DNA of 64,000 bases from Bacteroidota bacterium (GCA_947476185.1 CANJPX010000010.1:574-64573); one strand, 5' to 3'; shown: positions 24,426-64,000, counted from the first letter of the stretch. Notes: generated by a model not told the origin, from the sequence alone. Made by a program: numbers and translations.

Positions 24426-26537
24426 TTATTTTTCTTCTTCGTCTTCACCTTCTGTTTTAGGAACAACAGGAGCGATCACAGGAACATCTTTAGGTGCATT
24501 AGGATCAACAAAATCCTTACGTAACACTTTAAATACCGTACGTCTGTTCTTCTGCATCAAAGCCTCAAATACTTCTTTCGGCTGCCCTTTAGTTGTTTTA
24601 TTGATATATGATTCAGATAATGTATAATCAACTTTTCCATCCGGCTCAATATCAACTTCTAAAGGACTTTTCTCACCATAACCTTTTGGGGTCATACGTG
24701 CAGCAGGAATTCCTTTTGAAACCAAATAGTCAACGCAAGACTTAGCACGCGCTTCAGACAATTTCTGATTTGCAGGATCGCTACCTCTATAATCCGTATG
24801 AGAACTTAATTCGATAGTGATGTTCGGGTTATCGATCAAAGTTTGATAAAGGAAATTCAATGAATCCTGAGATTCCGGTCTCAAATCTGCTTTACCTAAA
24901 TCGTATAATACATCAGGGAAACGCATTTCTTTTTTGATAGGCGCTAAACAAAAATCATGTTTAAAGATCTTTGCTTCTTCAACACCAACTGTAGTTTCTT
25001 TTACTTTATCAGAACCGTTCAAAAATCCTAATGCAGCTTGTGTGGTTTTAACATCAGGTCCAACCTGAGTAGTAATTACATAAGAAGTATTTGGGATAAC
25101 ATAACGAGCGGTACCATTTTCAGCAAATTTGAAATAACCTGCTGCATCTGTTTTTGTTTCAACAGAAGATCCGTCAGAACCAACTAATTTTACTGTCACA
25201 CCAGGAATTACTTCTTTGTATAAACAATCAGAAACAACACCTTCAATAGTAAACAACAATGGAGGAAGAACGAATGACCAGATATCATCAGCACCTTTTG
25301 TTCCTTCACGGTTTGAAGAAAGATAACCTCTTTCTTTTTTACCTTCGAAAATAATACCGAAATCATCACCAGCAGAGTTGATAGGGTATTTCATATTTGT
25401 AACGTTACCCCATTGGTCATCACCTTTTTTCTCAGCTTTGAAGATATCCAAACCACCCATTCCTAAGTGACCTGTAGAAGAGAAATATAAAGTACCATCT
25501 TCGTGGATGAAAGGATAAACATCATTACCCGGAGTATTGATAGAAGTTCCAAGGTTTATAGGATTTCCCCATTTAGCACCTTTTTTCTCATATTTCACCA
25601 TCCAGATATCATTTTCACCTTGTCCGCCTGGCATGTTAGATGAAAAGAACAATGTCGTACCATCAGCAGAAATACAAGGAGTAGCATATTTTAGTGTATC
25701 GATACAAAATGCCATTTTAACAGGATCTCCCCAACCAGCACTCTTTTTAGTAGCTGACCAAATTTGATTGTAAGTAACATTTTTCTTGTCAACAATACAT
25801 CGAGTAAAGTATATAACATCACCTTTCTTGGTAACGCTACTTAATCCTTCATTATCTTTAGTGTTCACAGGCTCAGGAAGAGATGTCGGAGTATTCCACT
25901 TCCCGTTCTTATCCATCATTGCTTCAAAAATATCACTATAGTTTTCTCCATTTGTACCATCAATTGCAGAACCAATAACTCCGGGACGCATAGATGTGAA
26001 ATAGATCTTATTATATTTTTTATCTGCATATGAAGGAGCGAAATCAGGATCTTTTGTATTCAATAATGCAATGTTCTCAACCTTATAACGGGTTGCGGCA
26101 TCTTTCCATTTTTGAGCCAACTCACATGATTTAGCGCCATCTTCACCACGAGGATCAGAAGGAACTTCTTTTTTATAGTTGTTATACTCGATCAATGCTT
26201 CGTTATATTTCTCCAATGCTTTTTTAGCATCTGCCAAATACAATTTTGCTTTCGGGTCAGTGTAATTAGCCTTTATAGCTTTCAGATACCAAGCTTCTGC
26301 TTGTTTATTGTCGCCAATCAAACGATAACACTCTGCTGTTCTGAATACGATAAAAGCCTTATCTTCCTTCTTCTTTGCCTTTGTATATGCTTTTTTGTAT
26401 AGCTCGATAGAGTTGAAATATTCCTGACTTTCAAATGCTTTTTTTGCATCAGCCATAAAATTTTTCTGTGCAAAAGCGGAAGCTGAAAATAAAAGAGCAA
26501 GAGCTAAAATTGCAGTTAATTTTGTAATTATCTTCAT
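24426..26537 (-). CDS. OmpA-family outer-membrane/peptidoglycan-associated protein with N-terminal TPR repeats and TolB-like beta-propeller
   Basis: 703 aa. Signal peptide, TPR-like helical repeats, WD40-like beta-propeller repeats (..IYFSS..). C-terminal OmpA-like domain (..SSHTDYRGSDPANQKLSEARAKSCVDYLVS..). Confidence 0.75.
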   Translation of the reverse strand: MKIITKLTAILALALLFSASAFAQKNFMADAKKAFESQEYFNSIELYKKAYTKAKKKEDKAFIVFRTAECYRLIGDNKQAEAWYLKAIKANYTDPKAKLYLADAKKALEKYNEALIEYNNYKKEVPSDPRGEDGAKSCELAQKWKDAATRYKVENIALLNTKDPDFAPSYADKKYNKIYFTSMRPGVIGSAIDGTNGENYSDIFEAMMDKNGKWNTPTSLPEPVNTKDNEGLSSVTKKGDVIYFTRCIVDKKNVTYNQIWSATKKSAGWGDPVKMAFCIDTLKYATPCISADGTTLFFSSNMPGGQGENDIWMVKYEKKGAKWGNPINLGTSINTPGNDVYPFIHEDGTLYFSSTGHLGMGGLDIFKAEKKGDDQWGNVTNMKYPINSAGDDFGIIFEGKKERGYLSSNREGTKGADDIWSFVLPPLLFTIEGVVSDCLYKEVIPGVTVKLVGSDGSSVETKTDAAGYFKFAENGTARYVIPNTSYVITTQVGPDVKTTQAALGFLNGSDKVKETTVGVEEAKIFKHDFCLAPIKKEMRFPDVLYDLGKADLRPESQDSLNFLYQTLIDNPNITIELSSHTDYRGSDPANQKLSEARAKSCVDYLVSKGIPAARMTPKGYGEKSPLEVDIEPDGKVDYTLSESYINKTTKGQPKEVFEALMQKNRRTVFKVLRKDFVDPNAPKDVPVIAPVVPKTEGEDEEEK

Positions 26538-33037: not shown

Positions 33038-33309
33038 AATTGTAATAATTAAATTGTTTTATTATTAATTTGATTCTAAATAAAAATTACTCAAAACCAC
33101 TATTCAGTATTTAGTTTTCCTGAATTTAAGGGTGCAAATATAGAATAACAATTATTATTTACCAATTTTAAGATGATTTGGTTGATTTTATGATTTTCGA
33201 GGTTTATTAGATGGGTAATTTTTCTGCAAAAAAAACCAATGAAGCACAATCATAAAGAACCCCTTTCAATGATATATTGCTTATATTTGTGAGTATTAAT
33301 TCCGTTGTC

Positions 33310-35586
33310 ATGAAGTCGTTCAAACAATTTTTCATTCTCACCCTTCTGTTTTTTTCAATCCGCACAGGCATTGCTCAACCCTACATGGAGTGGAACGACA
33401 GCATTCCGGTAAAGATCGGCGCCACCACTCTATTAAATGCATGGGCTGGAGGATTAAATTTTATCCAGACTTCCAACATCGACCTGAATATGGATGGTAT
33501 CAAGGATCTGTTTTTGTTCGACCGGACCGGAAATAAAATACGTACCTATATTAATAAAGGGATTGCAGGTACGGTTGATTACAAATATGATCCTCAATAT
33601 GAAAGCAAATTCCCAAAGCTACACGACTGGGCATTACTGGTGGATTATAACTGTGACGGGAAAGAGGATATTTTCGGATATTCAAATTATGGCGGCGGAT
33701 TCATGGTTTATAAGAACACCTCTTCCATCGCCACAGGATTGCAATTTACCTTGGTTACGAATTTGCAATATTCGATGTACAATCCTCCTACCGGATCGCT
33801 CATTAACTTATATGTAAGTTCTGCCGATATTCCTGCGATCAGCGATATTGATAACGATGGAGACATGGATATAGTAACCTTTGCCATTACCGGAACCTAT
33901 ATGGAATATCATAAAAACATGAGTATGGAGCTTTATGGCACGTGCGACAGTTTGAAATTCCAGATGGCAAACCGATGCTGGGGATACGCTGCAGAAAATG
34001 CATTAAGTAACGATTATACCTTATTCGACACGTGTTTTGGAAATGTACCCGTACCTGAATTCACTCCTTCCAATCCGTCAAACAAATCTGCCGAAAGACA
34101 TTCCGGTTCCTGTCAGCTCTGCATCGATTTGGATAATGATGGTGATAAAGAATTTATTGTAGGTGATATCTCATTTAATAATCTGACAATGCTCACAAAT
34201 GGAGGGGCAATAAACGATGGAAGTTTTGTTGCCAAAGACATTGCATTTCCGGCAAACAACACCAGCACAGCGGCTGTTGACCTGGCTGTTTTCCCATGTG
34301 CATATTATGTTGATGTAAATTACGATGGTATAAAAGATCTTGTCGTGAGTCCGAATGCACCTAGCATTTCTGAAAATTTCAATAGTGTGGTCTATTATAA
34401 GAACAACGGAACAAATAGTTTTCCCGTTTTTCAATTCCAACAAGCAAATCTTTTGCAGGATAATATGATCGATGTTGGTGAAGGAGCTTATCCAGTATTT
34501 TTCGATTATGATAATGACGGATTGAAAGATCTCTTTATTGGGAATAATGGCTATTACGGAGCGACGGTTTATTCGCATCAGATAGCTTTATTTAAAAATA
34601 CAGGCACAGCAACTGTTCCAAAATATGACCTTGTTACACGTGATTATGCAGGATTAAGTTCATTAGGATTAACCAACATGGTTCCCGCATTCGGTGATCT
34701 GGACGGGGATACAGATGCAGATATGATGATAGGCTCTGCGGATGGAAAATTGCAATATTTTGAAAATACCGCCACGATCGGTTCAACAGCAAATTTTGTT
34801 TTGACTGCTGCAAACTTCAAAAACTCTTTTAACCGTGTTATCGATGTTGGGGATTTTGCTGTTCCACAAATTGTGGATATGGATAATAGCGGAACAAACG
34901 ATCTGGTAATAGGAGCAAGAAATGGAAAACTTGCATACTACCGTCATACGGGCACTACTCCTATTCCAATAATGGATTCCATCACTCATTTTTTCGGAAA
35001 TGTGAAAGTGAATCTTCCCGGATATTTTACAGGATATAGTTATCCTTATGTCTTCAAGCAGGGTGGTGTCACAAATATGTTGGTTGGTACAGAAAGCGGT
35101 TATATCCGCAGATACAATAACATTGATGGAAACTTAGGCGGAATTTTCACAATGGCCGATTCTACCTTTTTGGATATTTTTCAAGGCAGCAGAGTTGCAC
35201 CAAATGGTGCTGACATTAATAATGATGGTTTACTGGATCTCATAGTTGGAAATTATCAAGGCGGAGTATCCTTCTATAAAGGCGTTTCCGCTCTTACGAC
35301 TTCTAACATCGACAATTTAATTCATTTCAATTTCAATCTATTTCCAAATCCGGCTAACAATAATTTCAGCATTCATATTCTGAATGAAGAAAATAAAATG
35401 TATGTATTGGAATTGTATAATGTAATGGGGCAAATCATCAGTTCAGAAAAAATCATGAACAATATCGCTACGTTCAGCACCGAAAAACTTTCACCGGGAA
35501 TGTATATTTGTAAAGTTTCTGAAATAAATTCTGAAGGACAAAAACAATCCGGCTCATTGACAAAAAGAATTATTATTCAACATTAA
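33310..35586 (+). CDS. FG-GAP/VCBS-repeat beta-propeller protein with T9SS type A C-terminal sorting domain
   Basis: Signal peptide MKSFKQFFILTLLFFSIRTGIAQ. Many ..DxDxDGxxD.. FG-GAP-like calcium-binding repeats. C-terminus ..LFPNPANNNFSIHIL..YVLELYNVMGQII..GMYICKV.. is the T9SS C-terminal domain. Confidence 0.75.
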   Translation: MKSFKQFFILTLLFFSIRTGIAQPYMEWNDSIPVKIGATTLLNAWAGGLNFIQTSNIDLNMDGIKDLFLFDRTGNKIRTYINKGIAGTVDYKYDPQYESKFPKLHDWALLVDYNCDGKEDIFGYSNYGGGFMVYKNTSSIATGLQFTLVTNLQYSMYNPPTGSLINLYVSSADIPAISDIDNDGDMDIVTFAITGTYMEYHKNMSMELYGTCDSLKFQMANRCWGYAAENALSNDYTLFDTCFGNVPVPEFTPSNPSNKSAERHSGSCQLCIDLDNDGDKEFIVGDISFNNLTMLTNGGAINDGSFVAKDIAFPANNTSTAAVDLAVFPCAYYVDVNYDGIKDLVVSPNAPSISENFNSVVYYKNNGTNSFPVFQFQQANLLQDNMIDVGEGAYPVFFDYDNDGLKDLFIGNNGYYGATVYSHQIALFKNTGTATVPKYDLVTRDYAGLSSLGLTNMVPAFGDLDGDTDADMMIGSADGKLQYFENTATIGSTANFVLTAANFKNSFNRVIDVGDFAVPQIVDMDNSGTNDLVIGARNGKLAYYRHTGTTPIPIMDSITHFFGNVKVNLPGYFTGYSYPYVFKQGGVTNMLVGTESGYIRRYNNIDGNLGGIFTMADSTFLDIFQGSRVAPNGADINNDGLLDLIVGNYQGGVSFYKGVSALTTSNIDNLIHFNFNLFPNPANNNFSIHILNEENKMYVLELYNVMGQIISSEKIMNNIATFSTEKLSPGMYICKVSEINSEGQKQSGSLTKRIIIQH

Positions 35587-44785: not shown

Positions 44786-45559
44786 ATGAAAAAAATAATA
44801 CTAATCACTCTTGCCGGCATTATCTCTAGTTTTGGCTTTGCACAAACGACAGCAACAGACTTCACAGTAAATGATTGTTCCGGAACTTCACATCATCTTT
44901 TCGCTGAATTGGATGCAGGTAAAGTTATTGTAATTGCTTTTGTAATGCCATGCACTTCTTGTATCGCACCATCTGTTTCTGCTTATTCGGAAGTACAAAA
45001 CTATGCAAGCACTTATCCTGGACGTGTTTTATTTTATTTATCCGATGACCTGGGAACTGCTACCTGTTCATCAATAACAAACTGGGGAACAACAAATGGA
45101 ATAACCGGAGTTCCAGTGTTTTGCAATACCGCTGTCAAACAAGCAGATTATGGTGCAGCAGCAATGCCTAAAATTGTAGTTTTAGGTGGTCCTACTCATA
45201 CTGTTCTTTTTTCGCAAGACAATGGATTGAATGTAACAAATTTCAATGCTGCTATTAATTTAGGATTAGTTGCAGGCATCTTTGAAAATTCAAAATCCGA
45301 CTTCGAATTGTCAGTTTTCCCTAATCCTTCAAAGACAGATAAAACCACTATAAACTACACTCTGAAAGAAGGTTCTGATGTCACCGTTGACATTTATAAT
45401 ACAATTGGTGAAAAAGTTAAGACCATCGCGCTTGAAAAGCAAGCTGCAGGAAAACACGAATCAATATTAGATTTTGAATCATTGACCAATGGAATTTATT
45501 TCATAAAGTTGAATGCGGGAGAATCATCTCAAGTACTCAAATTCAGTGTTTCACATTAA
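44786..45559 (+). CDS. thioredoxin-fold (TlpA/redoxin-like, CxxC) protein with T9SS type A C-terminal sorting domain
   Basis: 257 aa. Signal peptide. ..GKVIVIAFVMPCTSCIAPS.. redoxin-type active site. C-terminal ..LSVFPNPSKTDKTTINYTL..GIYFIKLNAG.. T9SS C-terminal domain. Confidence 0.65.
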   Translation: MKKIILITLAGIISSFGFAQTTATDFTVNDCSGTSHHLFAELDAGKVIVIAFVMPCTSCIAPSVSAYSEVQNYASTYPGRVLFYLSDDLGTATCSSITNWGTTNGITGVPVFCNTAVKQADYGAAAMPKIVVLGGPTHTVLFSQDNGLNVTNFNAAINLGLVAGIFENSKSDFELSVFPNPSKTDKTTINYTLKEGSDVTVDIYNTIGEKVKTIALEKQAAGKHESILDFESLTNGIYFIKLNAGESSQVLKFSVSH

Positions 45560-45646: not shown

Positions 45647-46756
45647 ATGCGTTCTCTTATTTTTATTGCAACGACAATTCTATTCGCAAATAATATTTAT
45701 TCGCAAGGATGTTGTTCAGGTGGCAGTGGCAGTCCAATTGCAGGAGGAGCTTCACAGGGAGTCCTTCAAGACAGACAGGTTGAAGTTGCAGCAAATTATC
45801 AATACATCAACACGAATAAATTTAAATCCGGTGACAAAGATACGGCAGCTTTATTCGATGGATTCACAAGTAACTACATGTATCTTCGATTAGCATATGG
45901 CCTGACAAAAAACCTGACCATGTCTGTTGAATCAGGATATTATTTAAATAAAACACAAATCGGATTAAACAGAGTCGATACATTTAGTTCAGCCGGAATT
46001 GGCGACCTGATTTTATTTCCAAGATATGATGTATTAAACAGAACATCAGAAAAAAAACGCACAGAAATCACCTTGGGTATCGGACTAAAAATTCCATTAG
46101 GCATGTATGACGACTCAACTCTTTTTTACACAAACCCATATACAAGAAAACAGCTTTTCAGACCGTCACCTCCTTCAGTACAACCCTCTACAGGAGCGAA
46201 TGATTTTATTTTTTACGGCTTCTTTTACAGAGGTTATCCTGAAAAAAAATTCAGAGTATTCATGAATACATTATACGTTCGCAAAGGCTGGAGTCCAATT
46301 GGAGCGAAATTCGGGGATTACGCAAGTGTCGGTTTATTTGCCGGTCAAACCTTCTTTAAAAAATTAGGAGTTACCATACAGGTAAAAGGAGAATGGATCG
46401 GAAAAATGAAAGCCAGCCAAAATGCAGATGATATGATGAATATGTATAATGTGGATATCGTTTCAACAGGCAGCCGAAAAATATTATTTGTGCCTCAGCT
46501 TAGTTATAGCTATAACAGCTTCTCTATTTATGCCTTGACAGAAATTCCGCTTTACCAATATGTCAACAAAGTACAAGTAGCATCGCAAGTTCAGGCAACT
46601 GTGGGGATTTCATATCGATTTAATGCGTATAAAAAAATAGCCGTTAAAAGTGATTCGCAAAGTCTTTATGTTTGTCCGATGGGCTGTGTTGGAAGCGAAA
46701 GCAATGAACCTGGAAAATGCAAAGAATGCGGAATGGAATTAATAAAAAGAAAATAA
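45647..46756 (+). CDS. outer-membrane beta-barrel protein with N-terminal Cys-rich stretch and C-terminal heavy-metal-binding domain (HMBD) extension
   Basis: 369 aa. Signal peptide then QGCCSGGSGSP. Barrel body ending ..VGISYRF. C-terminal tail ..YVCPMGCVGSESNEPGKCKECGMELIKRK is the same YxCPM...CxxCGMxL motif as the 39764 lipoprotein. Confidence 0.55.
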   Translation: MRSLIFIATTILFANNIYSQGCCSGGSGSPIAGGASQGVLQDRQVEVAANYQYINTNKFKSGDKDTAALFDGFTSNYMYLRLAYGLTKNLTMSVESGYYLNKTQIGLNRVDTFSSAGIGDLILFPRYDVLNRTSEKKRTEITLGIGLKIPLGMYDDSTLFYTNPYTRKQLFRPSPPSVQPSTGANDFIFYGFFYRGYPEKKFRVFMNTLYVRKGWSPIGAKFGDYASVGLFAGQTFFKKLGVTIQVKGEWIGKMKASQNADDMMNMYNVDIVSTGSRKILFVPQLSYSYNSFSIYALTEIPLYQYVNKVQVASQVQATVGISYRFNAYKKIAVKSDSQSLYVCPMGCVGSESNEPGKCKECGMELIKRK

Positions 46757-46767
46757 AAAATAATCGA

Positions 46768-47544
46768 ATGAAAAAATTATTGACACTTATTTCTGTATTC
46801 TTATTTGTTTCAGTGTCTTTATACGGGCAAACAGCAATTGACTGGACCAAACTAGATTGTTCAGGAATCAGCCATAATCTTTATACGTATTTAAATAATG
46901 AGGATGTTGTAATTATGGAATTTGCTATGGGTTGTAGCAGTTGTACCAATGCCGGAGCACGACTACTTAGTATAAAAGACAAATATGCAATTTCTAATCC
47001 TGGGAAAGTAAACGTATTCTATATGGATTACTGGCCTGGAAATACCTGTGCAACTGTTGTTTTACCTACAACTACGCCTTATGCCTTTGATGCTGTATTT
47101 GATCATTCACTTGCAGAAAAAGATAATTATTTTGCTAGCTCCTCTCCAATGCCCGGTATTGCAATTGCTGCGGGAAGTTCACATCAGATAATTTATCAGG
47201 TAAATAGTTTTGTTGATGCTGATACTACATTAATTGAACAAGCAATCACTGCATTTTTCGCAACAGCAAACATTAAAGAAAACCTTTTCGAAAATACAAT
47301 AACACTTTCTCCAAATCCCTCCACTGGAGATGTAATAATTAATTTTACAAATACAGAAACAGAAAACATTAATATTTCACTTTTTAATTTAAATGGTCAA
47401 TTGATTAAAGGACTCTTTAATGAGAAAGTATCAGTTGGAGATTTCAAAAAAATAATTGATATCCGATCCTATCCTAAAGGCTTATATTACATTAACATTT
47501 CCAATTCAAAATACTCAATTAACAAAAAGATAGTTGTAAATTAA
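46768..47544 (+). CDS. thioredoxin-fold (CxxC) protein with T9SS type A C-terminal sorting domain, paralogue of 44786..45559
   Basis: Signal peptide MKKLLTLISVFLFVSVSLYGQ. ..DVVIMEFAMGCSSCTNAG.. C-terminal ..TLSPNPSTGDVIINF..GLYYINIS.. T9SS C-terminal domain. Collinear similarity with the 44786 protein (..DCSG.SH.L...L.....V.I..F.M.C.SC..). Confidence 0.65.
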   Translation: MKKLLTLISVFLFVSVSLYGQTAIDWTKLDCSGISHNLYTYLNNEDVVIMEFAMGCSSCTNAGARLLSIKDKYAISNPGKVNVFYMDYWPGNTCATVVLPTTTPYAFDAVFDHSLAEKDNYFASSSPMPGIAIAAGSSHQIIYQVNSFVDADTTLIEQAITAFFATANIKENLFENTITLSPNPSTGDVIINFTNTETENINISLFNLNGQLIKGLFNEKVSVGDFKKIIDIRSYPKGLYYINISNSKYSINKKIVVN

Positions 47545-47970: not shown

Positions 47971-48165
47971 TTAACGATAAAATTTAATTTTCCGTGTTGC
48001 CTTTTTGCAGATGGCATAAACTATTAACATTTCTGTTGATGGATGTTTTTTTACATGCAATTATTTGGTTACGGGAAAAAGTTCACATTTTTAGAACTAC
48101 TTTTTAGAAAAACAAATCAATTATCGATTTGTTATATTTTTATTTATCTAATAATTATAAATATT

Positions 48166-48954
48166 ATGAAACCACATAAAATATTTTTCGCATTTTTTTT
48201 ATCAGTTACACTTCTTGCTTCATCTTGTAAAAAAGACAAAGATGAAGAAACGCCAACACCTTCAGTTCCCGCTGCCACATCTGGAAGCCTGGCACTTCAT
48301 TTTGAAAATATGGTGGGAGATAGTGCCTTGGTAATGAATACCGAATCATATGTAACTGCAAACAATGATACAATTACTGTTTCTGCATTTAAATATTATA
48401 TCAGCAACATTGTATTAACTAAAAGCGGTGGAGGAACATATGTTGAAAATGAGAGTTACCATTTAATTGATGCTTCTGACTTATTAACCGGTGAATTTAC
48501 TCTTCCAAATGTTCCTTTCGGGGATTACACAGGAATTACATTTATGATCGGTGTTGACAGTACACGGAATGTTTCAGGTGCACAAACCGGAGCATTAGAT
48601 CCTGTAAATGGAATGTACATGGGAATGGGTGCAGGTTATATCCAAGCAACCTTGGAAGGATTATCTCCACAGTCAACATCTGGAGGGCACATGTTCATGT
48701 ACCAAGTTGCTGGATTCCAAGGAATATACAACCCTCTTAAAACTATTTCTCCAACTTTTTCAGGTGGTATCGCCACTGTCACATCAAGTGTTATTCCAGA
48801 AATTCACTTCAAAACGAATTTATTAGAATGGTTCACAACGCCTAACAACATTAGCATTTCCGCTGTGAGTATGGTAATGTCTGTTAACTCAACAAGTCTA
48901 AATTTCGCTGACAACTATGCAGACATGATAAGCGTTGAACACATACACAATTAA
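48166..48954 (+). CDS. lipoprotein, possibly MbnP-like (copper-associated periplasmic protein family)
   Basis: From MKPHKIFFAFFLSVTLLASSC (lipobox). ..FKYYISNIVLTKSGGGTYVENESYHLIDAS.. and C-terminal ..NFADNYADMISVEHIHN resemble what I recall of Bacteroidota MbnP-family proteins. Tentative. Confidence 0.4.
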   Translation: MKPHKIFFAFFLSVTLLASSCKKDKDEETPTPSVPAATSGSLALHFENMVGDSALVMNTESYVTANNDTITVSAFKYYISNIVLTKSGGGTYVENESYHLIDASDLLTGEFTLPNVPFGDYTGITFMIGVDSTRNVSGAQTGALDPVNGMYMGMGAGYIQATLEGLSPQSTSGGHMFMYQVAGFQGIYNPLKTISPTFSGGIATVTSSVIPEIHFKTNLLEWFTTPNNISISAVSMVMSVNSTSLNFADNYADMISVEHIHN

Positions 48955-53155: not shown

Positions 53156-55789
53156 ATGAAAAAGACGACACTTCTTCTTCTCGTTTTTGCAATTGTATTT
53201 TTTATACCAAATTTGGTAATAGCACAAGGTGGTGATTGCACAACAGCCGATCCATTTTGTACAGGTGTAAGCTATACTTTCCCTGCTTCTACAACAACTG
53301 CTGCGGCGACAGGCCCGGATTATGGTTGCTTGCTTTCGCAACCAAATCCGGCATTTTATTATGTGCAGATTGCTACTCCGGGAACGCTGATCATCGATAT
53401 TTCTCAACAAACTGCTGCCGGCTTAGGTACCGATGTAGACTTTATTTGTTGGGGACCTTTTACTTCTCCTTCAGCCGGATGTGCTTCCGGATTAATAGGC
53501 TCAGCAGTTGATTGCAGTTTTTCAACTGCAGCAAATGAAACATGTACTATCCCATCTGCCTTAACAGGGCAATTCTATATTTTGCTTTTAACAAATTTTG
53601 AAGGCGTTGCTGCAGACATAACTTTTGCCTCCAACGGTTCCAGTACTGCAACGACCAATTGTGCTATCCTATGTAACATGACAGGATTAACAGCAGTTCC
53701 CGGACCTTGTAATCCTGCCACAAATACGTATACATTGAGTGGCGTCATAACCTATGCCGACCCGCCTACCACCGGCACGTTAACCGTCACGAACAGTTGT
53801 AGTGGGGTCACGCAAGTCTTTAATCCACCATTTCCAGCTACATCGGTCAGTTACTCACTGGCCGGAATGCCTGCCACAGGAGCGGGCTGTACAGTAACGG
53901 CCGTGTTTTCTGGCGACCCATTGTGTACATTAACAACTCCTTTCACAGCTACGGCCCCTTGTACAGTTTCCTGTTTGATTTCTGCAGTTACAGCAACGCC
54001 GACAGCTTGTAATGCTGTAACTCAACAATATGATGTGAGCGGGAACGTTACTTTTGTGAATGCTCCTGCTTCAGGGACATTAACAATTACGAATTCTTGC
54101 GGAGGAACACCGGTAGTTTTCAACGCACCATTTACAAGTCCTGCTGCCTATAGCTTCCCGGGATTAATTTCAAACGGCGCATCCTGTAATGTAACTGCTG
54201 TTTTTTCTGCAGATCCTGCTTGTACTTTCACGCAAGCGTATATTGCTCCAGCACCTTGTCCGGTTTCATGTTCGATAACGGCATTAACTGCAACACCATC
54301 GGCATGTGATCCTGTAACAAACAATTATTCAGTTACAGGAAGTATCTCCTTTGTAAATCCGCCAGCAACAGGAACCTTAACGGTTTCAAGTTCTTGCGGA
54401 GGTACGGTGCAAATTTTGAGTCCACCATTTGTGAGTCCGCTCGCATACGCCTTAAACGGACTAACGTCTAACGGTTCTGCCTGTGTTGTTACAGCCGTAT
54501 TTTCTGCAGATCCTTTGTGTATCTTAACTCAAAACTATACAGCCCCAGCCTCTTGTACGTTATGCCCTGTAACTGCAGCTAACAATGGTCCATTATGTGC
54601 CGGACAAACATTAAACCTCACAGCAACAACTGTTGCAGGCGCAACCTATAGCTGGACAGGTCCCGGTGGATTTGTTTCAACACTGCAAAACCCTACAATT
54701 CCTGCAACTACCGCGGCAATGTCAGGAGTTTACACTGTTACAATTAATATAGTAACACCAGCCTGCAGCGGAGCTTCCAGCACCACAGTTACAATAAATG
54801 CCCTTCCTGTTGTTATAGTGAATTCTCCGACAACATGTACAGGCATTTCGACAACACTTACAGCAAGCGGAGCTACAACTTATTCCTGGTCTTCCGGTGA
54901 AATAACCAATCCAATAACAGTTCCAGGAACATCCACAAGCTATACCGTAACAGGAACGACAGCAGGTTGCACAGGAACTGCGGTAGCAGTTGTAACAAGC
55001 TCCCCTCCACCTATCGTTAGTTTTGCTGGAGTAAATTTAAGCGGTTGCAATCCTGTTTCGGCAAGTTTCACTGCTGACCAAACAGGGAATCCGGGAGCAA
55101 CATATACTTGGAATTTTGGTGATGGGACAACAGGAACAGGTCCTACTACTTCACATGTCTATTTGACCAATGGATGCCACACTGTAACATTAACAGTAAG
55201 TTTCGGAGCGGGATGTTCAACCACAGATTCCATACCTTGTATGGTAAATGTTTTTGCTCAACCGACTGCAAATTTCACATTTGCTCCTACTACTATTGAT
55301 ATCTTAAATCCAACAGCATTCTTTACAAACGCTTCTGCTAATTCTACTATTTGGGCCTGGGATTTTGGAGACAACACTTCCTCGACAACAGAAAACCCTA
55401 TTCATACCTGGGGAGAAATGGGGGCCTATCCTGTAACCTTATACGCTTCAACAGCAAATGGCTGTATCGACTCAATTACCTATATTATCTACATTGAAGA
55501 TATTGTTACCGCTTATATTCCAAATACATTTTCTCCGAATGCTGATGGAGTGAATGATATTTTTAATATTTATTCCCACGGTATTTCTCCAGACAATTTT
55601 GAAATGTTGATCTTCGACAGATGGGGAAATAAAATATATACTTCACGAAATATTAATGAAGGATGGAATGGCGCGGTAAATAATCGTGGAGAAGTTGTTG
55701 AAATTGATGTTTATGTATACCATTTTAATTACAGAGATTTCAAAGGCGGAAAACACAAAGCCATTGGACATGTAACAATTATAAAATAA
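53156..55789 (+). CDS. large cell-surface adhesin-like protein with gliding-motility-associated (T9SS type B) C-terminal domain
   Basis: About 877 aa from MKKTTLLLLVFAIVFFIPNLVIAQ. Cys-rich N-terminal domain shared with the next gene, three about 95-aa repeats (..TAVPGPCNPATNTYTLSG..), Ig-like and PKD (..YTWNFGDGTTGTGPTTSHVY..) domains. C-terminal ..YIPNTFSPNADGVNDIFNIY..LIFDRWGNKIY..GWNG.. CHU_C-type domain. Confidence 0.8.
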   Translation: MKKTTLLLLVFAIVFFIPNLVIAQGGDCTTADPFCTGVSYTFPASTTTAAATGPDYGCLLSQPNPAFYYVQIATPGTLIIDISQQTAAGLGTDVDFICWGPFTSPSAGCASGLIGSAVDCSFSTAANETCTIPSALTGQFYILLLTNFEGVAADITFASNGSSTATTNCAILCNMTGLTAVPGPCNPATNTYTLSGVITYADPPTTGTLTVTNSCSGVTQVFNPPFPATSVSYSLAGMPATGAGCTVTAVFSGDPLCTLTTPFTATAPCTVSCLISAVTATPTACNAVTQQYDVSGNVTFVNAPASGTLTITNSCGGTPVVFNAPFTSPAAYSFPGLISNGASCNVTAVFSADPACTFTQAYIAPAPCPVSCSITALTATPSACDPVTNNYSVTGSISFVNPPATGTLTVSSSCGGTVQILSPPFVSPLAYALNGLTSNGSACVVTAVFSADPLCILTQNYTAPASCTLCPVTAANNGPLCAGQTLNLTATTVAGATYSWTGPGGFVSTLQNPTIPATTAAMSGVYTVTINIVTPACSGASSTTVTINALPVVIVNSPTTCTGISTTLTASGATTYSWSSGEITNPITVPGTSTSYTVTGTTAGCTGTAVAVVTSSPPPIVSFAGVNLSGCNPVSASFTADQTGNPGATYTWNFGDGTTGTGPTTSHVYLTNGCHTVTLTVSFGAGCSTTDSIPCMVNVFAQPTANFTFAPTTIDILNPTAFFTNASANSTIWAWDFGDNTSSTTENPIHTWGEMGAYPVTLYASTANGCIDSITYIIYIEDIVTAYIPNTFSPNADGVNDIFNIYSHGISPDNFEMLIFDRWGNKIYTSRNINEGWNGAVNNRGEVVEIDVYVYHFNYRDFKGGKHKAIGHVTIIK

Positions 55790-55814: not shown

Positions 55815-56234
55815 ATGAATTCTACTTCTAAATTTGAAAGATCAATAAAAATAGGGATTTCTATTTTTATTTTATTTTTATTTTCGAATAAAATATCTGC
55901 ACAAAGCAGCATTCAAGTAATGAGTGCAGATGCTGTAAAAATGGCAATAACAACAAATCTGAATCATGGGTTGCCAAGATTTCAAGGGTTAAATGTTCAA
56001 TATGTTATTTCAGCAGATCAATTAGAAGGAGCCAAACAAAACCCTTCAAAATTTATTACGGTAATCAAAAATATTCCGGGAGTCTTTGATTGTACTATTG
56101 ATGCAAAAAATTTATTAGTCTATGTGAATTGTCCAAAAGATGATGGCTCGGATTATCTAGCAGCAATAAAATCAAAATTAGCTGAACACAATGTAAAAAT
56201 GATCTCTTATAAAGAGTTTATTTATAAAAAATAA
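55815..56234 (+). CDS. hypothetical small secreted protein between the two adhesin genes
   Basis: 139 aa with signal peptide (..LFSNKISAQ). No family recognised. Confidence 0.35.
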   Translation: MNSTSKFERSIKIGISIFILFLFSNKISAQSSIQVMSADAVKMAITTNLNHGLPRFQGLNVQYVISADQLEGAKQNPSKFITVIKNIPGVFDCTIDAKNLLVYVNCPKDDGSDYLAAIKSKLAEHNVKMISYKEFIYKK

Positions 56235-56279: not shown

Positions 56280-59200
56280 ATGAAAAAAAAATTACATAAA
56301 ACAAGTTTTCGAAAAATTCTACAAATTTCAATTTCAAAAAAACTAATTGAAATTTTTTTAGGATTATTTCTGCTTGTATCAGGTCAAATATTCGGGCAAG
56401 GAAATAACCCATGTGCTGCAACCCCTTTGGCAACAAATGCAACTTGTATTGTTACAAATGGCACTACCGTGGGTGCAACTTATGCTAGCAATGCTGCAAA
56501 TGGAGGAAGCCCAACATGTGCCTCACCGGGAGCGCCAGATGTATGGTATAGTATTGTCGCTCCAGCTAGTGGAAGTATAACACTTACTATGTCAGGTGGA
56601 GGTATTACAGATGGAGGAATGGCATTATATAACGGCCCTTGTGGCGGCCCAACACAAATTGCCTGCAGTGATGACGCAATTGGTTTAATGCCTCAAATCG
56701 TTCAATCAGGTTTAACACCAGGTGCAACATACTATGTAAGGGTGTGGTCTTATTTTAGCGGCACAGGAACTTTTGGTATTTGTGATGTTGCAAATCCGGC
56801 CCCGCCTCCTCCTCCCGCAAATGACAATCCATGTGCAGCAACAGTTTTAACTCCAGGGGTGGCTTGTACATATACTGCAGGAACTACTTCAGGTGCAACA
56901 CAAACCTTAGCTGGTTGTGTTGGTACTGCCAATGATGATGTTTGGTATTCCTTCGTAGCGGCAGGAACTTCTCAAGTAATAACGGTAGCAGCATCGGCAG
57001 GTTTTGATCCTGTTGTTGAGGTATTCTCTGGAACGTGTGGCGGACTAACAGCTATGAGTTGTAATGACTTTGCATATTTGAGTGGATCTACTGGTGGCAG
57101 CACAATAGCGGGTCTAACAATAGGACAAACCTATTGGGTAAGAATTTATGATTACTTTTCAGGTGTTCCTGCAACTAGTACTTTTAATATTTGTATTACA
57201 ACTCCTCCTCCTCCTCCTCCTCCAGGACCGGGAGATGATTGTTCTCAGGCTATACCATTTTGTACAGGAACAACTTATACCTTCCCAAATAATACAGGGA
57301 TTGCATCTTTAGGAAGCGGTGGAACTTATGGTTGTTTATTATCCACTCCTAATCCCGTTTGGTATTTTATGCAAGCAGCTACTGCTGGAAATCTTAGTAT
57401 AGGGATCAACCAAGGTACAACTGCTGGTGCTGGAAATTTAGATCTTGACTATTGCTTATGGGGTCCATTTTCAAGTCAGGCAGCGGGTTGTGCAGGAATT
57501 TCAGCAGCAAATATTTTAAGTTGTAGTTATTCTATTGCTGCAACAGAAACAGCAAATATTCCAAACGCAATAGTAGGTCAATTTTATCTTTTATTACTAA
57601 CAAATTTCTCTAACTCTGCCGGGGTTATTCAATTCAGTCAGACACTAGGGCCGGGAAGTACAAACTGTGCAGTACTTTGCGGGATGTCAGCTTTAACAGC
57701 AGTTCCCGGAGCATGTGTCCCTGCTACTAACACATATTCCGTTACAGGATCTGTAACATTCGTTTACCCTCCTGCCACCGGAAATCTAGTGATCTCTAGC
57801 AGTTGTGGAGGAAGTGTTACTGTGCCAAGTGCTGGTCTGGCAAGTCCTTATAACTATACAATTTCTGGTATTACACCTACCGGTGGCCCCTGCACAATTA
57901 CTGCAGCCTTTACTGCTGATGCAACGTGCGCACTGAATCAAACATACACTGCACCTGCCCCCTGTACCTCATGTGTTGCAACGGCCACTAATACTGGGCC
58001 CTATTGCGCCGGAGCAACTATTCAACTGAATGCCACAGGTGGCGGAACATACAGTTGGAGCGGCCCTGGAGCTTTTACTTCAACCTTACAAAACCCTACC
58101 CGGCCAGCTTCTACAGTAGCCATGAGTGGCACCTATACAGTTACTGTTACAAATGGAGCTTCCACTTGTACAGCAATAACTGCTGTTACAGTAAACCCTA
58201 TACCAGTAATTACAGCACCGGCCAATATAGCTGTTTGTGCTGGCACAGCGATTGCCGCAACAAATTTTGTAAGTATACCAGCCGGGGCAACATATACCTG
58301 GTCTAATTCAAATGTGGCAATTGGCTTAACAGCTTCAGGTATAGGAAATGTCCCGGGATTCACGGGAACAAATGCTACTACGGCCGCAATTACAGGTACA
58401 ATTACGGTAACACCTACTTTGTCAGGTTGTGTTGGTTTACCAATTATCTATACAATCACCATAAATCCACAACCTACATCAGCCTTCACTCAAACAGCGA
58501 ATACTTGTTTGACTGGAAATTCGTTTACTTTTACAAGTGCCCCAGTTATACCTTTAGGTTATACACAATCATGGACTTTTGGTGGTGGTGGTGCCAGTCC
58601 GGCAACTTCAATAACTAGTCCTGTTACTGTTACTTATACCACTCCAGGCACATATACAATTACACATATTGTAACAGGACCGGGTGCTTGTACATCAACC
58701 ACAACATCAACGGTTACCATTTATCCAATGCCAATAGTAACGGTCAATTCAGTTACTATTTGTGCAGGACAAACTACTGTGTTAACGGCGGGCGGTGCAT
58801 CAACATATACCTGGAGCGCTGGAGCAACATCAGGAGGCGGAGCAACTGCAACAGCCTCTCCATTAACAACGACGACTTATACCGTAACTGGAACAAGCAC
58901 TGACGGGTGTACAGCAACAGCAATAGCAACAGTTACAGTTACTCCTCTTCCAATAGTAACTGTCAATTCTCCTACCATTTGTTTTGGAGCTACAGCTACA
59001 CTTAATGCTGCCGGCGGGACTACTTACCTTTGGTCAACTGGTGCAATAATAAACCCAATCACTGTTACCCCTGCAGGAACAACAACTTATACTGTAACAG
59101 GAACAACAGCAGCTTGCACGAACTCGGCAGTTTCAACTGTAACCGTTACGCCATTAACGACAGTTACGGCAGTGGCTAACCTCACATTTTGTCCTGGTGC

Positions 59201-62200
59201 AGCTGTACCTCTAAACACATTTACCAGTGCGCCTGCCGGAGCAACATTTACATGGACGAACTCTAATATTAATATAGGATTGGTTGCAAGTGGAGCTACA
59301 AGTGTTCCTGCATTTACAGCAACCAATGCTACTGCTGCCGCAATTACCGGCACAATTACCATTACACCAACATTATTAGGTTGTGTAGGAACTCCAAGTA
59401 CTTATTCAATTACCGTTAATCCTTCACCAATAACAACAGTCACATCTGCAACTATTTGTCCGGGTGGAACCGCAACATTAACTGCCGGAGGGGCCTCCAC
59501 TTATTCTTGGAGTGCCGGTGTAACAGTAACAGGAATAACTACTGCAACAGCAACACCTGCTTCAACAACTTCATACACAGTAACAGGAACTTCGGCTGCA
59601 GGTTGTACGAGCACAGCTGTGGCAACAGTTACTGTTTCTCCGGTATTAGTTATAACGGTTAACTCTCCGACAATTTGTGCGGGAGTAGCGACAACATTAA
59701 CTGCCGGTGGCGGAACAACCTATACTTGGAGTGCAGGCGCTACATCTACCGGAGCAAATACAGCAACCGCTTCACCTGTGACCACAACATCCTATACCGT
59801 AACAGGAACAACAGCAGGCTGTACAAATACTGCTGTTTCGATAATTACAGTAAATCCTTTACCAACAGTTACCGCTGAAGCGAACGAGGTAGTTTGTGCC
59901 GGGGCTTCCTTGCCTGCAAACACATTCGCCAGCACACCTGCCGGGGCAACATTTGCCTGGACAAATTCTGATCCCTCAATTGGATTAGCTGCTAATGGTA
60001 CAGTTAGCACTCCTGTTTTCATAGCGGTAAATGCTACTGCTAGTCCTATTGTTTCAACTGTTACGATCACTCCTACTTTAGCTGGATGTATTGGTACGCC
60101 AATAACATATACGATTACTGTTAATCCATTACCTATTGTTACAGTAAACTCTCCAACTATTTGTCCTGGAGGAACGGCATCACTTTCAGCTAGTGGAGCC
60201 ACATCCTACACTTGGACTGCTGGGGTAATTGTTACAGGTGTAAATACTGCAACATCAACACCAGCAACAACAGCCTCTTATACAGTTACAGGAACATCAG
60301 CTGCAGGCTGTACAAGCACTGCAGTTGCGACAGTTACTGTTGCTTCAACATTAACGGTAACAGTAAATTCTCCAACAATTTGTAACGGACAAGTTGCAAC
60401 ATTGACCGGAGCGGGTGCTGCAACCTATACCTGGAGTGCCGGAGCTTCAACAACCGGAGTTAATACGGCATCTGCTTCACCTTCAACAACTACATCTTAT
60501 ACTGTGACGGGAACATCTGCAGGTTGCAGTAATACTGCTGTTGCAACTGTTACTGTCAACCCATTACCAACAGTTACTGTTACATCACCTACTATCTGTG
60601 CAGGATCGACTGCTACATTAACCGGTGGTGGAGCTACTTCCTATTCATGGAGTGCAGGAGCAACATCTTCAGGTGTTAATACAGCTACAGCCTCTCCTAT
60701 TACCACTACATCTTATACCGTTACAGGAACAACTGCAGGTTGTACCAATACGGCTGTTAGTTTAGTTACCGTTAATCCGATACCTGTAGTTGCTGTTAAC
60801 TCGCCCACTATTTGTTCGGGAGCAACTGCTGCACTAACTGCTACCGGAGCTACAACCTATACTTGGAGTGCCGGTGCCGTTTCTTCCGGAGTTAATACGG
60901 CAAACGCTACTCCTGCTTCAACGACTTCCTACACAGTCACGGGAACACTTGCTGGTTGTACAGCAACTGCTATATCTACTGTAACCGTAACTCCTTTACC
61001 TGTCGTTTCAGTTAATTCACCTACTATTTGTAATGGACAAACAGCTGCCTTAACTGCTGCCGGAGCTGCCACCTATACGTGGAGCGGTGGAGCTTCCTCA
61101 ACCGGAGTAAACACAGCTACTGCGACTCCTGCGGTTACCACGACTTATACTGTTACAGGGACCACTTCCGGTTGTACCGGAACAGCAATATCTACGGTTA
61201 CCGTTAATCCTTTACCGATTGTTACTGTTAACTCTCCGACTATTTGTGCAGGAGCTACTGCCTCATTGACTGCTGGAGGAGCAGCAACTTATGTTTGGAG
61301 TGCAGGCGCAACAGCAACAGGAGTAAATACTGCAACAGCAACACCGGCAGGAACTACTTCATACACAGTTACAGGAACAACTGCAGGCTGCACAGGTTCT
61401 GCCGTTTCAACAGTTACTGTAAATCCTTTACCTGTTTTAACTGTTAACTCTCCAACGGTCTGTCCTGGACAAACCGCAACTTTAACTGCAAGTGGTGCTG
61501 CTACTTACACATGGAGTGCTGGTGCAACATCAACTGGAGTAAATACAGCAAGTGCTACACCGGCAGGAACAACTACCTATACTGTTACAGGTACTTCTTT
61601 GGGTTGTACCGGAACAGCTGTTGCAACAGTTACTATTGGAGGATCAATCACTGTAACCGTGAACTCTCCTACAATTTGTCCGGGTGGGACTGCTGCCTTA
61701 ATTGCTACCGGTGGTGCAACATATGTGTGGAGTGCTGGTGCCGTGCCATCAGGTGTTAGCACAGCTAATGCTAGTCCTGGTGTAACAACATCCTATACTG
61801 TCACGGGGACATCCGGTGGATGTACAGGATCAGCAGTAGCTACAGTTATTGTTGAAGTTCCTGTTGCTGTTACAGTAAATTCACCTACCATTTGTAACGG
61901 TCAAGTCGCGACATTAACTGCTTCTGGAGCAACTACTTATTCATGGACAGCCGGGGCTTCTTCTACCGGTATAAATACTGCTTCGGCATCGCCTTCAGCA
62001 ACCACATCTTATACTGTTACAGGTACTACAGCAGGTTGTACAGGAACTGCAGTCGCCTCAGTCACAGTAAATGCTATTCCAACTGTTACTGTCACTTCAC
62101 CTACTATTTGTGCTGGATCAACAGCAACATTAACAGGTGGAGGTGCTACAACTTATTCTTGGAGCGCAGGTGCTACCTCCTCCGGAGTAAATACAGCAAC

Positions 62201-64000
62201 AGCTTCTCCTGCAACAACAACATCATATACCGTTACAGGAACAACGGTAGGCTGTACCAATAGTGCTGTTAGTTTAGTTACTGTAAATCCAATTCCTGTA
62301 GTTGCGGTTAACTCGCCTACTATCTGTGCGGGAGCAACTGCTGCATTAACTGCTATAGGAGCTACTACTTATACATGGAGTGCTGGTGCTGTTTCTTCAG
62401 GAGTTAGTACTGCAAACGCTACTCCTGCTACAACGACTTCCTATACCGTTACGGGAACACTTTCTGGTTGTACAGCAACTGCTGTATCTACTGTAACCGT
62501 GACTCCTTTACCTGTTGTATCTGTTAATTCACCTACTATTTGTAATGGTCAAATTGCTTCATTAACTGCGGCAGGGGCTACAACTTATACATGGAGTGGT
62601 GGAGCATCAACAACAGGAGTAAATACTGCAGATGCCGTACCTTCCACTACCACTACATATACAGTTACAGGTACGAACTCAGGCTGCACCAATACAGCAG
62701 TTTCTACTGTTACTGTTAACCCTTTACCTGTTGTTACAGTAAGTTCACCAACTATTTGTGCAGGATCAGTCGCGACATTAACTGCTGGTGGGGCAGTGTC
62801 ATATACTTGGAGTGCAGGAGCAACTACCAGTGGCGTTAATACTGCAACAGCTTCGCCCGCAACAACAACATCCTATACTGTTACAGGTACAACTTCCGGA
62901 TGTACAGGTACAGCTGTTTCAACAGTGACCGTTAATCCTTTACCAGTTATTTCAGTCAACTCACCTACAGTTTGTCCGGGACAAACCGCAACATTGACTG
63001 CAAGTGGCGCGGCTACATATACTTGGAGTGCCGGTGCCACTTCGACCGGTGTTAACACTGCGACTGCTAGTCCAGGTGCTACTACCTCATATACTGTTAC
63101 AGGAACCTCGGCAGGTTGTACAGGAACTGCTATTGCAACAGTTACAATTGGAGGATCAATTTCAGTCACAGTTAATTCACCAACTATTTGTCCTGGAGGA
63201 ACAGCAACCTTGACAGCTGCTGGTGGTGCTACATATGTTTGGACAGCAGGTGCGACACCTTCCAGTGTAAGCACAGCGACTGCTAGTCCGGGTGCTACTA
63301 CGACCTATACTGTTACCGGAACAATGGGCGGATGCACAGGTTCTGCTGTTGCAACGGTTACTGTCGCCGCTTCTATTGCAATAACGGTCAATTCACCAAC
63401 AATATGTAACGGTCAAACAGCGAACTTAATCGCTTCAGGTGCTACAACATACGCATGGACCGCAGGAGCATCAAGTACCGGAGTAAACACAGCTGATGCA
63501 AGTCCGGCTACAACCACTTCTTATACTGTTACCGGGACCTTAGCAGGTTGTACAGGAACAGCCGTTACTATAGTTACTGTTACACCATTGCCTACCGTTA
63601 CAGTAACATCTCCTACAATTTGTATTGGAACAAGTGCAACAATAACTGCTGGAGGTGCAACAACATATTCATGGAGTGCGGGAGCAACTTCGACAGGTGT
63701 CACTACTGCTACGGCTTCCCCACTAGCAACAACAACTTACACGGTAACAGGTACAGCATCAGGCTGTACAAATACTGCAATATCTACAGTAACTGTTACA
63801 CCTTTACCAATCATTACAGTTAATTCACCAACTATTTGTGCAGGTGCAACAGCCGCATTGACAGCTCTAGGAGGATCTACATACTCTTGGAGTGCAGGAG
63901 CCGTTTCTACCGGTGTAAATACTGCGAATGCTTCACCTTTAGTAACAACAACGTATACTGTTACAGGAACAGCTACAGGTTGCAGTAACACTGCTGCCGC
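56280..64000 (+). CDS. giant repetitive cell-surface adhesin-like protein (SprB-like tandem Ig-like repeats), truncated at the window end
   Basis: ATG at 56280 ([40 protein letters not shown]). I read it by eye as one stop-free frame through 64000 (over 2570 codons). Two N-terminal NPCAAT.. domains with poly-Pro linkers. A domain paralogous to the 53156 protein N-terminus. Then dozens of about 72-aa units (..[69 protein letters not shown]..). Confidence 0.8.
57201..57221 (+). repeat. (TCC)7 trinucleotide repeat encoding a poly-proline linker in the giant adhesin
   Basis: Direct reading of tcctcctcctcctcctcctcc. A less pure CCG/CCT tract encodes the first PPPPP linker at about 56796-56818. 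Confidence 0.85.
58690..64000 (+). repeat. coding tandem repeat array (unit about 216-222 nt, 72 aa) with higher-order about 1.5-kb (7-unit) periodicity
   Basis: Unit-by-unit comparison. The block about 60580-62088 is repeated at about 62089-63600, with equivalent units in the same order at roughly 85-90% nucleotide identity. A third copy begins about 63600. A longer about 88-aa unit (..VTAxANxxxCxGAxxxxxxFxSxPAGATFxWTNS..) recurs at about 58200, 59160 and 59870. Confidence 0.8.

Follow-up and report, generated by a model that had tools for sequence, protein, structure and literature searches.

The last 7.7 kb of a 64,000-nucleotide (nt) stretch of DNA from a Bacteroidota bacterium (GCA_947476185.1 CANJPX010000010.1:574-64573; the whole stretch is called the window below) are taken up by the 5′ part of a giant surface-protein gene (56280..64000, + strand), which was delimited from its open frame and from complete orthologues found in synteny. 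The host is an uncultured freshwater Bacteroidota bacterium. An array of immunoglobulin (Ig)-like units in this gene contains a seven-unit super-repeat that arose as one tandem block duplication. We are confident that the gene encodes the N-terminal half of a giant fibrillar surface protein exported via Sec and the secretion system of type IX (T9SS), that its array underwent a single old block duplication, and that the array is now stable. All features of the gene given below lie on the + strand.

A Pfam scan, suggested in a preliminary description made from the sequence, found Ig_7, PKD_5, and GBD_T9SS_assoc domains in the window. Together with the SprB repeats and the CHU_C/TIGR04131 domain added by the orthologues, these upheld the view of a giant, adhesin-type surface gene made of Ig-like, CHU_C-associated units. 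At least 22 units of 72 amino acids (aa) belonging to Ig_7 (PF19081, “Ig-like domain CHU_C associated”) are present in the window and were numbered W_01 to W_22. Tandem Repeats Finder reported a period of 216 nt, and a unit-by-unit identity matrix placed the units in exact 216-nt register from 60339 to 64000, with C15 and C63 invariant across all units, as expected from the described units of about 72 aa with one cysteine pair each. The super-repeat consists of seven units, or 1512 nt. Its two copies, both delimited with the unit matrix, are block A (W_07 to W_13, 60555..62066), in which Pfam detected seven Ig_7 stretches when the 504-aa block was scanned alone, and its tandem copy, block B (W_14 to W_20, 62067..63578). 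A recurring seven-unit block had been described within about 25 nt of these coordinates. Pairs of units seven positions apart (lag-7) had nt identities of 69, 80, 89, 76, 75, 76, 74, 70, and 70%, with a mean of 75.6% vs 67.4 ± 3.7% for all other pairs (Mann-Whitney p = 1.7e-5). Adjacent units shared 67% nt identity and, on average, 73% aa identity.

The two blocks align without gaps over 1512 nt at 77.2% nt identity (89, 92, and 50% at codon positions 1, 2, and 3, respectively), and their unit pairs are 78-92% identical in aa. The identity of 85-90% that had been proposed from the sequence was therefore too high: it applies only to a 323-nt patch (60714-61036), which is 89.5% identical to 62226-62548, while the remaining 1189 nt of the block are 73.9% identical. 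Moreover, the longest exact direct repeat in the region from 58.6 to 64.0 kb measures 26 nt. The blocks are thus not long near-identical repeats, and the suspected proneness to assembly collapse is unlikely.

We recovered orthologues from genome and metagenome contig collections (contigs are designated by L-numbers) and located their units using a profile of the window units; unit positions in the orthologues are numbered with the prefix p. Three complete syntenic orthologues were found, on contigs L045 (4506 aa), L001 (4331 aa), and L003 (4311 aa), within a conserved gene order: mdh (malate dehydrogenase, on the opposite strand), a CHU_C paralogue of about 877 aa, the giant gene, and another large Ig_7 protein. 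Contigs L004, L009, and L015 matched the query but hold no units of the Ig_7 subtype of the array and were left out as orthologues. The closest relative, L002, is 92.1% identical in nt and colinear over 7.25 kb; this contig stops at window position 59815, ahead of the blocks. When the N-terminal 580 aa were compared with a collection of 5.8 billion proteins, no full-length relative was found, the matches being at most 1015 aa long and at most 65% identical.

Unit-by-unit orthology could be established from position and signature residues. Units W_01-06 correspond to L001_01-06, and W_21-22 to L001_14-15. In between, W_07-13 and W_14-20 both map to the same single set of units, namely L001_07-13, L003_07-13, L045_06-12, and L010_02-06. 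As the block is present only once in these four orthologous contigs, the seven-unit tandem duplication is specific to the window lineage. A third block had been suggested to begin near 63600, but there is none: W_14/W_21 and W_15/W_22 are 70% and 68% identical in nt, respectively, which is the background level. Units W_21 and W_22 (63579..64000, W_22 being cut by the window end) form instead the conserved array tail; by position, they are orthologous to tail units p14 and p15, which come after the single block in L001, L003, and L045. W_21 is more similar to L045_13 (79%) and L001_14 (77%) than to any unit of its own array. Overall, there are 17 Ig_7 units in L045, 18 in L001 and L003, and at least 22 in the window. 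Other changes in array composition were also seen: the corresponding segment of L005 is shorter by three units (p7-p11 being down to two), and L045 has one upstream Ig_7 unit fewer and one PKD_5 domain extra. The relatives between which array length was seen to change share only 70-75% DNA identity and differ at the species level.

The age of the duplication was approached through 4-fold degenerate sites in codons for identical residues. The identity expected at these sites from codon usage is 0.37; non-homologous unit pairs in the array had 0.39, and positional orthologues had 0.405 (window and L001) or 0.42 (window and L045). Blocks A and B had an identity of 0.48 overall, with 0.75 for W_08/W_15, which lies in the conversion tract discussed below, and 0.33-0.52 for the other six unit pairs (0.33-0.40 for W_11-13 vs W_18-20). 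Synonymous sites between the blocks are close to saturation. In units 9-13, the A-B, A-L045, and B-L045 identities amount to a near trichotomy, which, together with the 4-fold-site identities, indicates that the duplication took place at about the time when the L045 lineage split off. Since both copies remain 78-92% identical in aa despite their diverged synonymous sites, both have been kept by purifying selection. The 60714-61036 patch is probably a later gene-conversion tract between the blocks and is the sole later exchange visible. A given unit resembles its positional orthologues in other species as closely as it does the paralogues of its own array; concerted evolution is therefore absent, and nothing points to ongoing homogenization. 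Unequal recombination, which had been proposed for this array, thus fits its past, with one event plus unit insertions and deletions in relatives, and not its present, with copies at 77% identity and nearly saturated synonymous sites.

Two further ideas were considered and rejected. The first was selected codon scrambling between units: the observed 4-fold identity of 0.39 is not below the expected 0.37, so plain saturation suffices. The second was an ancestral 2 × 7 period (p5-11 and p12-18) in all orthologues, which would make the tail an older third block; the lag-7 excess was not significant in L001, L003, or L045, in their average, or in cross-species paralogue matrices (permutation p = 0.18-0.26).

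The most likely route to the duplication would be an out-of-register crossover between similar “ICNGQ” units seven positions apart. Unit W_13 (61851..62066) is a candidate crossover junction, as it mixes p13 residues in its 5′ part with p6 residues in its 3′ part, and W_14 retains the VNAIP linker, which comes after p6 in L001 and L003; this hybrid structure tentatively fits such an exchange. It is known that domain arrays grow by duplication of multi-domain blocks, often in mid-array (PMC1553488, Bjorklund et al. 2006). The duplication added 504 residues, which we estimate at about 20-28 nm of stalk, and was followed by synonymous divergence under purifying selection and probably by one conversion of about 320 nt. 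The array behaves as a stable set of positionally individualized domains, not a hypervariable contingency repeat.

The reading frame stays open on the + strand from the stop codon at 56232-56234 to the window end (2588 codons). The ATG at 56280 is the likely start codon, which gives at least 2573 codons in the window, and the gene runs off the window end. A full product of about 5,000 aa, with the gene end near 71 kb, is predicted by coordinate calculation, because 2412 residues of L045 follow L045_14, the counterpart of W_22. The suggestion that the true gene is longer than assembled therefore holds in that about 2,400 further residues are predicted; these would be unique SprB, PKD, and C-terminal domain (CTD) sequence and not more copies of the block. 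In all three complete orthologues, the Ig_7 array is followed by 19-21 SprB repeats (PF13573), PKD domains, and, at the C-terminus, a CHU_C/TIGR04131 domain (TIGR04131 scoring 42-47 bits vs a cutoff of 35 with NCBIfam; CHU_C, PF13585, with Pfam). By comparison with these orthologues, another three Ig_7 units would lie beyond the window, along with roughly 20 SprB repeats, PKD domains, and a C-terminal sorting domain of type B (CHU_C). PorP-like proteins are known to anchor proteins with type B CTDs (PMC9143113); by analogy with SprB/SprF and PG1035/PorP, the type B domain would hold the protein at the outer membrane via a PorP-like protein, with the N-terminal lectin-like head pointing outward.

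Several domains precede the array. A putative Sec signal peptide (56280..56399, boundaries approximate) was judged by eye from the translation. It is followed by two galactose-binding-like domains (GBD_T9SS_assoc, PF23759; 56466..57239) with a poly-Pro linker between them, detected by Pfam as two stretches at 48.9-54 bits vs a cutoff of 27. The first spans aa 63-157, and the extent of the second was set from a repeated NDNPCAAT motif in the translation. These two domains, which are presumed to form the distal binding head of the stalk, are shared by L045. In L001 (12994-13500) and L003 (9548-10000), a single different N-terminal domain of about 150 aa replaces them and precedes the same Cys-rich module; therefore, the head has been swapped between lineages, while the stalk has been conserved. 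In the window, this Cys-rich module (57231..58001, residues 318-574) had no Pfam match and was recognized by BLASTP from its similarity to the N-terminus of the upstream paralogue encoded at 53156-55789 (48% identity over 260 aa, E = 1e-63). The module is also common to many T9SS cargo proteins.

Three PKD_5 (PF19406) domains were then detected with Pfam at 58233-58475 (residues 92-172 of the scanned piece), 59190-59429 (31.5 bits vs a cutoff of 25), and 59889-60134 (best stretch aa 1204-1285). They account for the variant unit of about 88 aa that had been noticed in three copies upstream of the blocks. Alternating with them are the Ig_7 units W_01 to W_06 (58716..60554), identified with the unit profile and the repeat analysis. 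The PKD_5 domains and the pairs of Ig_7 units between them form a diverged three-domain period of 696/705 nt, with 59-66% identity over the full period and 61% and 72% over a 300-nt core; this period is older than the seven-unit block. The Ig_7 family scored 75.5 bits on the 2573-aa product vs a cutoff of 27.3. NCBIfam had no match in this window product, and Pfam found no SprB repeat (PF13573) among its 2573 residues.

Two unit subtypes were distinguished, one of 72 aa and one of 69/70 aa (“WSTGS..NP(I/L).V.P”). One array position can hold different subtypes in different orthologues (L003 units 10 and 12, L005 unit 08, L045 unit 06, and W_02 at 58938-59144), a hint that sequence has occasionally been converted between units or between genes. 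The G+C content climbs to 0.45-0.48 within the array because of its Thr, Ala, and Gly codons. Minus-strand open reading frames (ORFs) inside the array (59087-59362, 59792-60202, 62873-63274, and 63737-63991) were taken as by-products of this Thr/Ala/Gly-rich codon composition. A search for promoters and terminators in 55.7-56.4 kb gave nothing informative, and an Rfam scan of the window found no RNA family.

Some points weigh against our reading and should be considered together. The timing of the duplication is imprecise given the near trichotomy of units 9-13, and the duplication may have occurred before the split between the window and L045 lineages and then been lost in L045. Few diagnostic residues identify the crossover junction. 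Two consecutive units were modelled with AlphaFold2 from an alignment restricted to the window; the model was all-beta but, with a mean predicted local distance difference test score (pLDDT) of 40.7, unusable. Because this model is unreliable, the Ig-like fold is assigned from Pfam and from matches of the profile of 72-aa units to solved chains, namely 9ncf_S (“Immunoglobulin-like domain protein”, E = 6e-10) and 9c2d_S (a tail protein, E = 2e-9). The C-terminal half lies outside the window and is known through orthologues at roughly 70-75% nt identity, and the adhesive role is predicted from the domain types alone. Finally, regarding the anchor, PorP_SprF had no match among the scanned window ORFs of at least 150 aa and three shorter ones, nor was a PorP/SprF-like gene seen next to the orthologues, where the downstream gene of L001 and L003 encodes an Ig_7 protein and that of L045 had no match (searched with NCBIfam only).

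The alternative that fares best, although we find it quite unlikely, is that the gene is an active length-variation locus of the “periscope” type, in which near-identical 1.5-kb blocks would recombine and vary by strain and the assembly would under-count the copies. Unit numbers do differ among orthologues (17, 18, and at least 22, with one L005 segment three units shorter), a later exchange between the blocks is recorded in the 323-nt tract of 89.5% identity, and short-read orthologue contigs break in the array (L002, L005/L050, and L010). Another observation in its favor comes from the neighboring gene of L001 (26337-29870), downstream of the orthologue, which encodes a second large Ig_7 protein. 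A lag scan of the fetched loci revealed in it one young higher-order repeat of three units (about 639 nt), with 88-95% identity between copies over 300 nt and up to 99% between single units. This repeat fits a recombination-prone picture far better than the window array does, and it indicates that block duplication is ongoing somewhere in the gene family. Recombination between near-identical blocks is at odds, however, with window blocks at 77%, near saturation of synonymous sites, and a longest exact repeat of 26 nt. It is likewise at odds with the lack of concerted evolution and of a third block, and the high DNA identity of repeats that is the proposed periscope mechanism (PMC8201768) is absent here.

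It should be noted that several orthologue contigs end or start inside the Ig_7 array, including L002 (at the equivalent of 59815), L005/L050 (L005 just after p13), and L010, an 8.8-kb contig that covers the gene interior only. Fragmentation rather than collapse seems to be the usual assembly problem for this array. In the SprB-repeat region, L044 and L045, which come from sister samples and are 98.8-99.7% identical, show overlaps of 47-63 nt at the joins of high-scoring segment pairs. In L044, these overlaps (L044:7015-7386 and L044:11343) lead to a premature stop, with 2347 aa followed by a 1366-aa ORF; this looks like an assembly join artefact and not a real truncation.

It is also very unlikely that the seven-domain period itself was selected, as a functional super-repeat in which pairs of units joined without the usual proline linker (“IGGSI.. 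PGG” followed by “ICNGQ”) would serve as hinges or docking sites. Such PGG/NGQ pairs, lacking the usual NPLP linker, do recur at W_05-06, W_12-13, and W_19-20 and at p5-6 and p12-13 in L001, L003, and L045, and both blocks were retained under purifying selection. An ancestral lag-7 signal is nevertheless not significant in the 14-unit arrays of L001, L003, and L045 (permutation p of about 0.2), and L005 has three units between its PGG/NGQ pairs vs five in these orthologues. Finally, it is highly improbable that block B is an assembly chimera, that is, the orthologous segment of a co-occurring population joined via a short k-mer in the “ICNGQ” units to a gene that really has one block: the A-B divergence (23%) is about that of the window gene from L045 or L001, four of four orthologous contigs covering the segment have a single block, the junction unit W_13 looks hybrid, and small join artefacts exist in the L044/L045 assemblies of the gene, but the frame and the 216-nt register are intact across both junctions, the 323-nt tract at 89.5% is more easily explained by paralogue conversion within one genome, inter-unit exact matches of at most 26 nt are too short for joins at usual final k-mer sizes, the codon-position pattern of purifying selection is the same in both blocks, and neither block had a close match in the searched collections.

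Beyond the giant gene, the window shows that the organism uses a T9SS, as it encodes four predicted type A cargo proteins, one type B cargo protein, and a PorE-like ORF. The type A (Por_Secre_tail) cargo genes, identified by sorting-domain matches, are located at 3760-5517 (-), 33277-35586 (+), 44786-45559 (+), and 46717-47544 (+); one of them encodes a single Ig_7 plus PKD, and another encodes FG-GAP repeats. The type B protein is the 877-aa CHU_C paralogue (53156..55789, +), which contains the Cys-rich module and PKD domains according to Pfam, TIGR04131, and BLASTP and occupies the same position in L045, L001, L003, L002, and L005. In this protein, the C-terminal subdomain of the Cys-rich module, of about 110 aa, is present three times in tandem (residues ~170-282, 269-381, and 368-485). 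Between this paralogue and the giant gene lies a 139-aa ORF (55815-56234, +) with a signal-peptide-like start and no Pfam family. The PorE-like ORF (24426-26537, -; 703 aa) was recognized from its Pfam architecture of PD40 repeats, CarboxypepD_reg, and a C-terminal OmpA domain; PorE is a T9SS component that partners with PorP (PMC9143113). No porP-like gene was found beside this ORF, and core T9SS genes such as sprA and gldKLMN are absent from the window. The neighbors of the giant gene are mdh, the 877-aa CHU_C paralogue, and the 139-aa ORF, which is not an sprCDBF context; the gene should therefore not be called SprB.

The rest of the window is ordinary chromosome, with genes for SecDF, a type III glutamine synthetase, RF-1, pyrF, and transporters. 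A tyrosine recombinase (Phage_integrase plus a SAM-like N-terminal domain, XerC/D-like) is encoded near the window start (1046-1930, -). Beside two of the T9SS cargo genes, the ORFs at 45647-46756 (+, heavy-metal-binding domain) and 48043-48954 (+, MbnP family) suggest a small copper-related cluster.

The gene, which is incomplete in the window, is best annotated as encoding an SprB-repeat family protein of about 5,000 aa with a T9SS type B sorting domain. Its array offers a clean and dated case in which several domains of a bacterial T9SS stalk were duplicated as one block. The duplication is an ordinary example of stalk growth, not a currently unstable repeat. It also offers a calibration: a super-repeat that is striking at the protein level proved to stem from an ancient duplication whose synonymous sites are saturated, and protein-level repetition alone is therefore no sign of present instability or of an assembly artefact. 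Individual Ig_7 units have positional orthologues in genus-level relatives, which suggests that they do not serve as interchangeable spacers. A broader proposal, which we regard as rather doubtful, is that block duplication is a general and still active route of stalk-length change in Bacteroidota T9SS surface proteins. If this were true, the old seven-unit block of the window and the young three-unit block of L001 would be two ages of one process. The retention of both diverged blocks would then imply functional tuning, either of the stalk length or of a seven-domain period with Pro-less hinge pairs, and the “periscope” idea, which comes mainly from cultured pathogens, would extend to environmental Bacteroidota and to T9SS cargo.

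Among known systems, SprB of Flavobacterium johnsoniae is likewise a giant repetitive surface protein, and the orthologues of the window gene carry 19-21 SprB repeats and a type B CTD. The window genome also has other T9SS cargo and a PorE-like gene, and PorP-like anchoring would be expected (PMC9143113). Unlike sprB, the window gene is not part of an sprCDBF-like operon and has no sprF/porP-like neighbor; its N-terminal half consists of an Ig_7/PKD_5 array with galactose-binding-like heads, the part with SprB repeats being located beyond the window.

Periscope proteins (SasG, Aap, Rib, and Sgo_0707) resemble the window protein in their rod-like stalk of tandem domains, their terminal head, and a domain number that differs among relatives. 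In these proteins, length variation has been attributed to the high DNA identity of the repeats (PMC8201768), whereas the window units are 67% identical in nt and 73% in aa, the blocks are 77% identical in nt, and length differences were seen only between species-level relatives. The screen used for periscope proteins retains tandem repeats of more than 50 aa with at least 80% protein identity (PMC8201768); adjacent window units, at 73% aa on average, lie below this value, while six of the seven lag-7 pairs (78-92% aa) would pass.

The seven-module super-repeats of nebulin and those of titin offer another parallel, as seven consecutive domains were duplicated in mid-array and a lag-7 peak is seen here (PMC1553488). 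The window gene differs in being bacterial and intron-less and in having two block copies only. Lastly, the window protein resembles the fibrillar adhesins (Monzon et al. 2022, PMC9210967) in its putative N-terminal head, its long stalk of Ig-like, PKD, and SprB domains, and its surface-anchoring signal, but its anchor would be a T9SS type B CTD in place of an LPXTG motif or an autotransporter.

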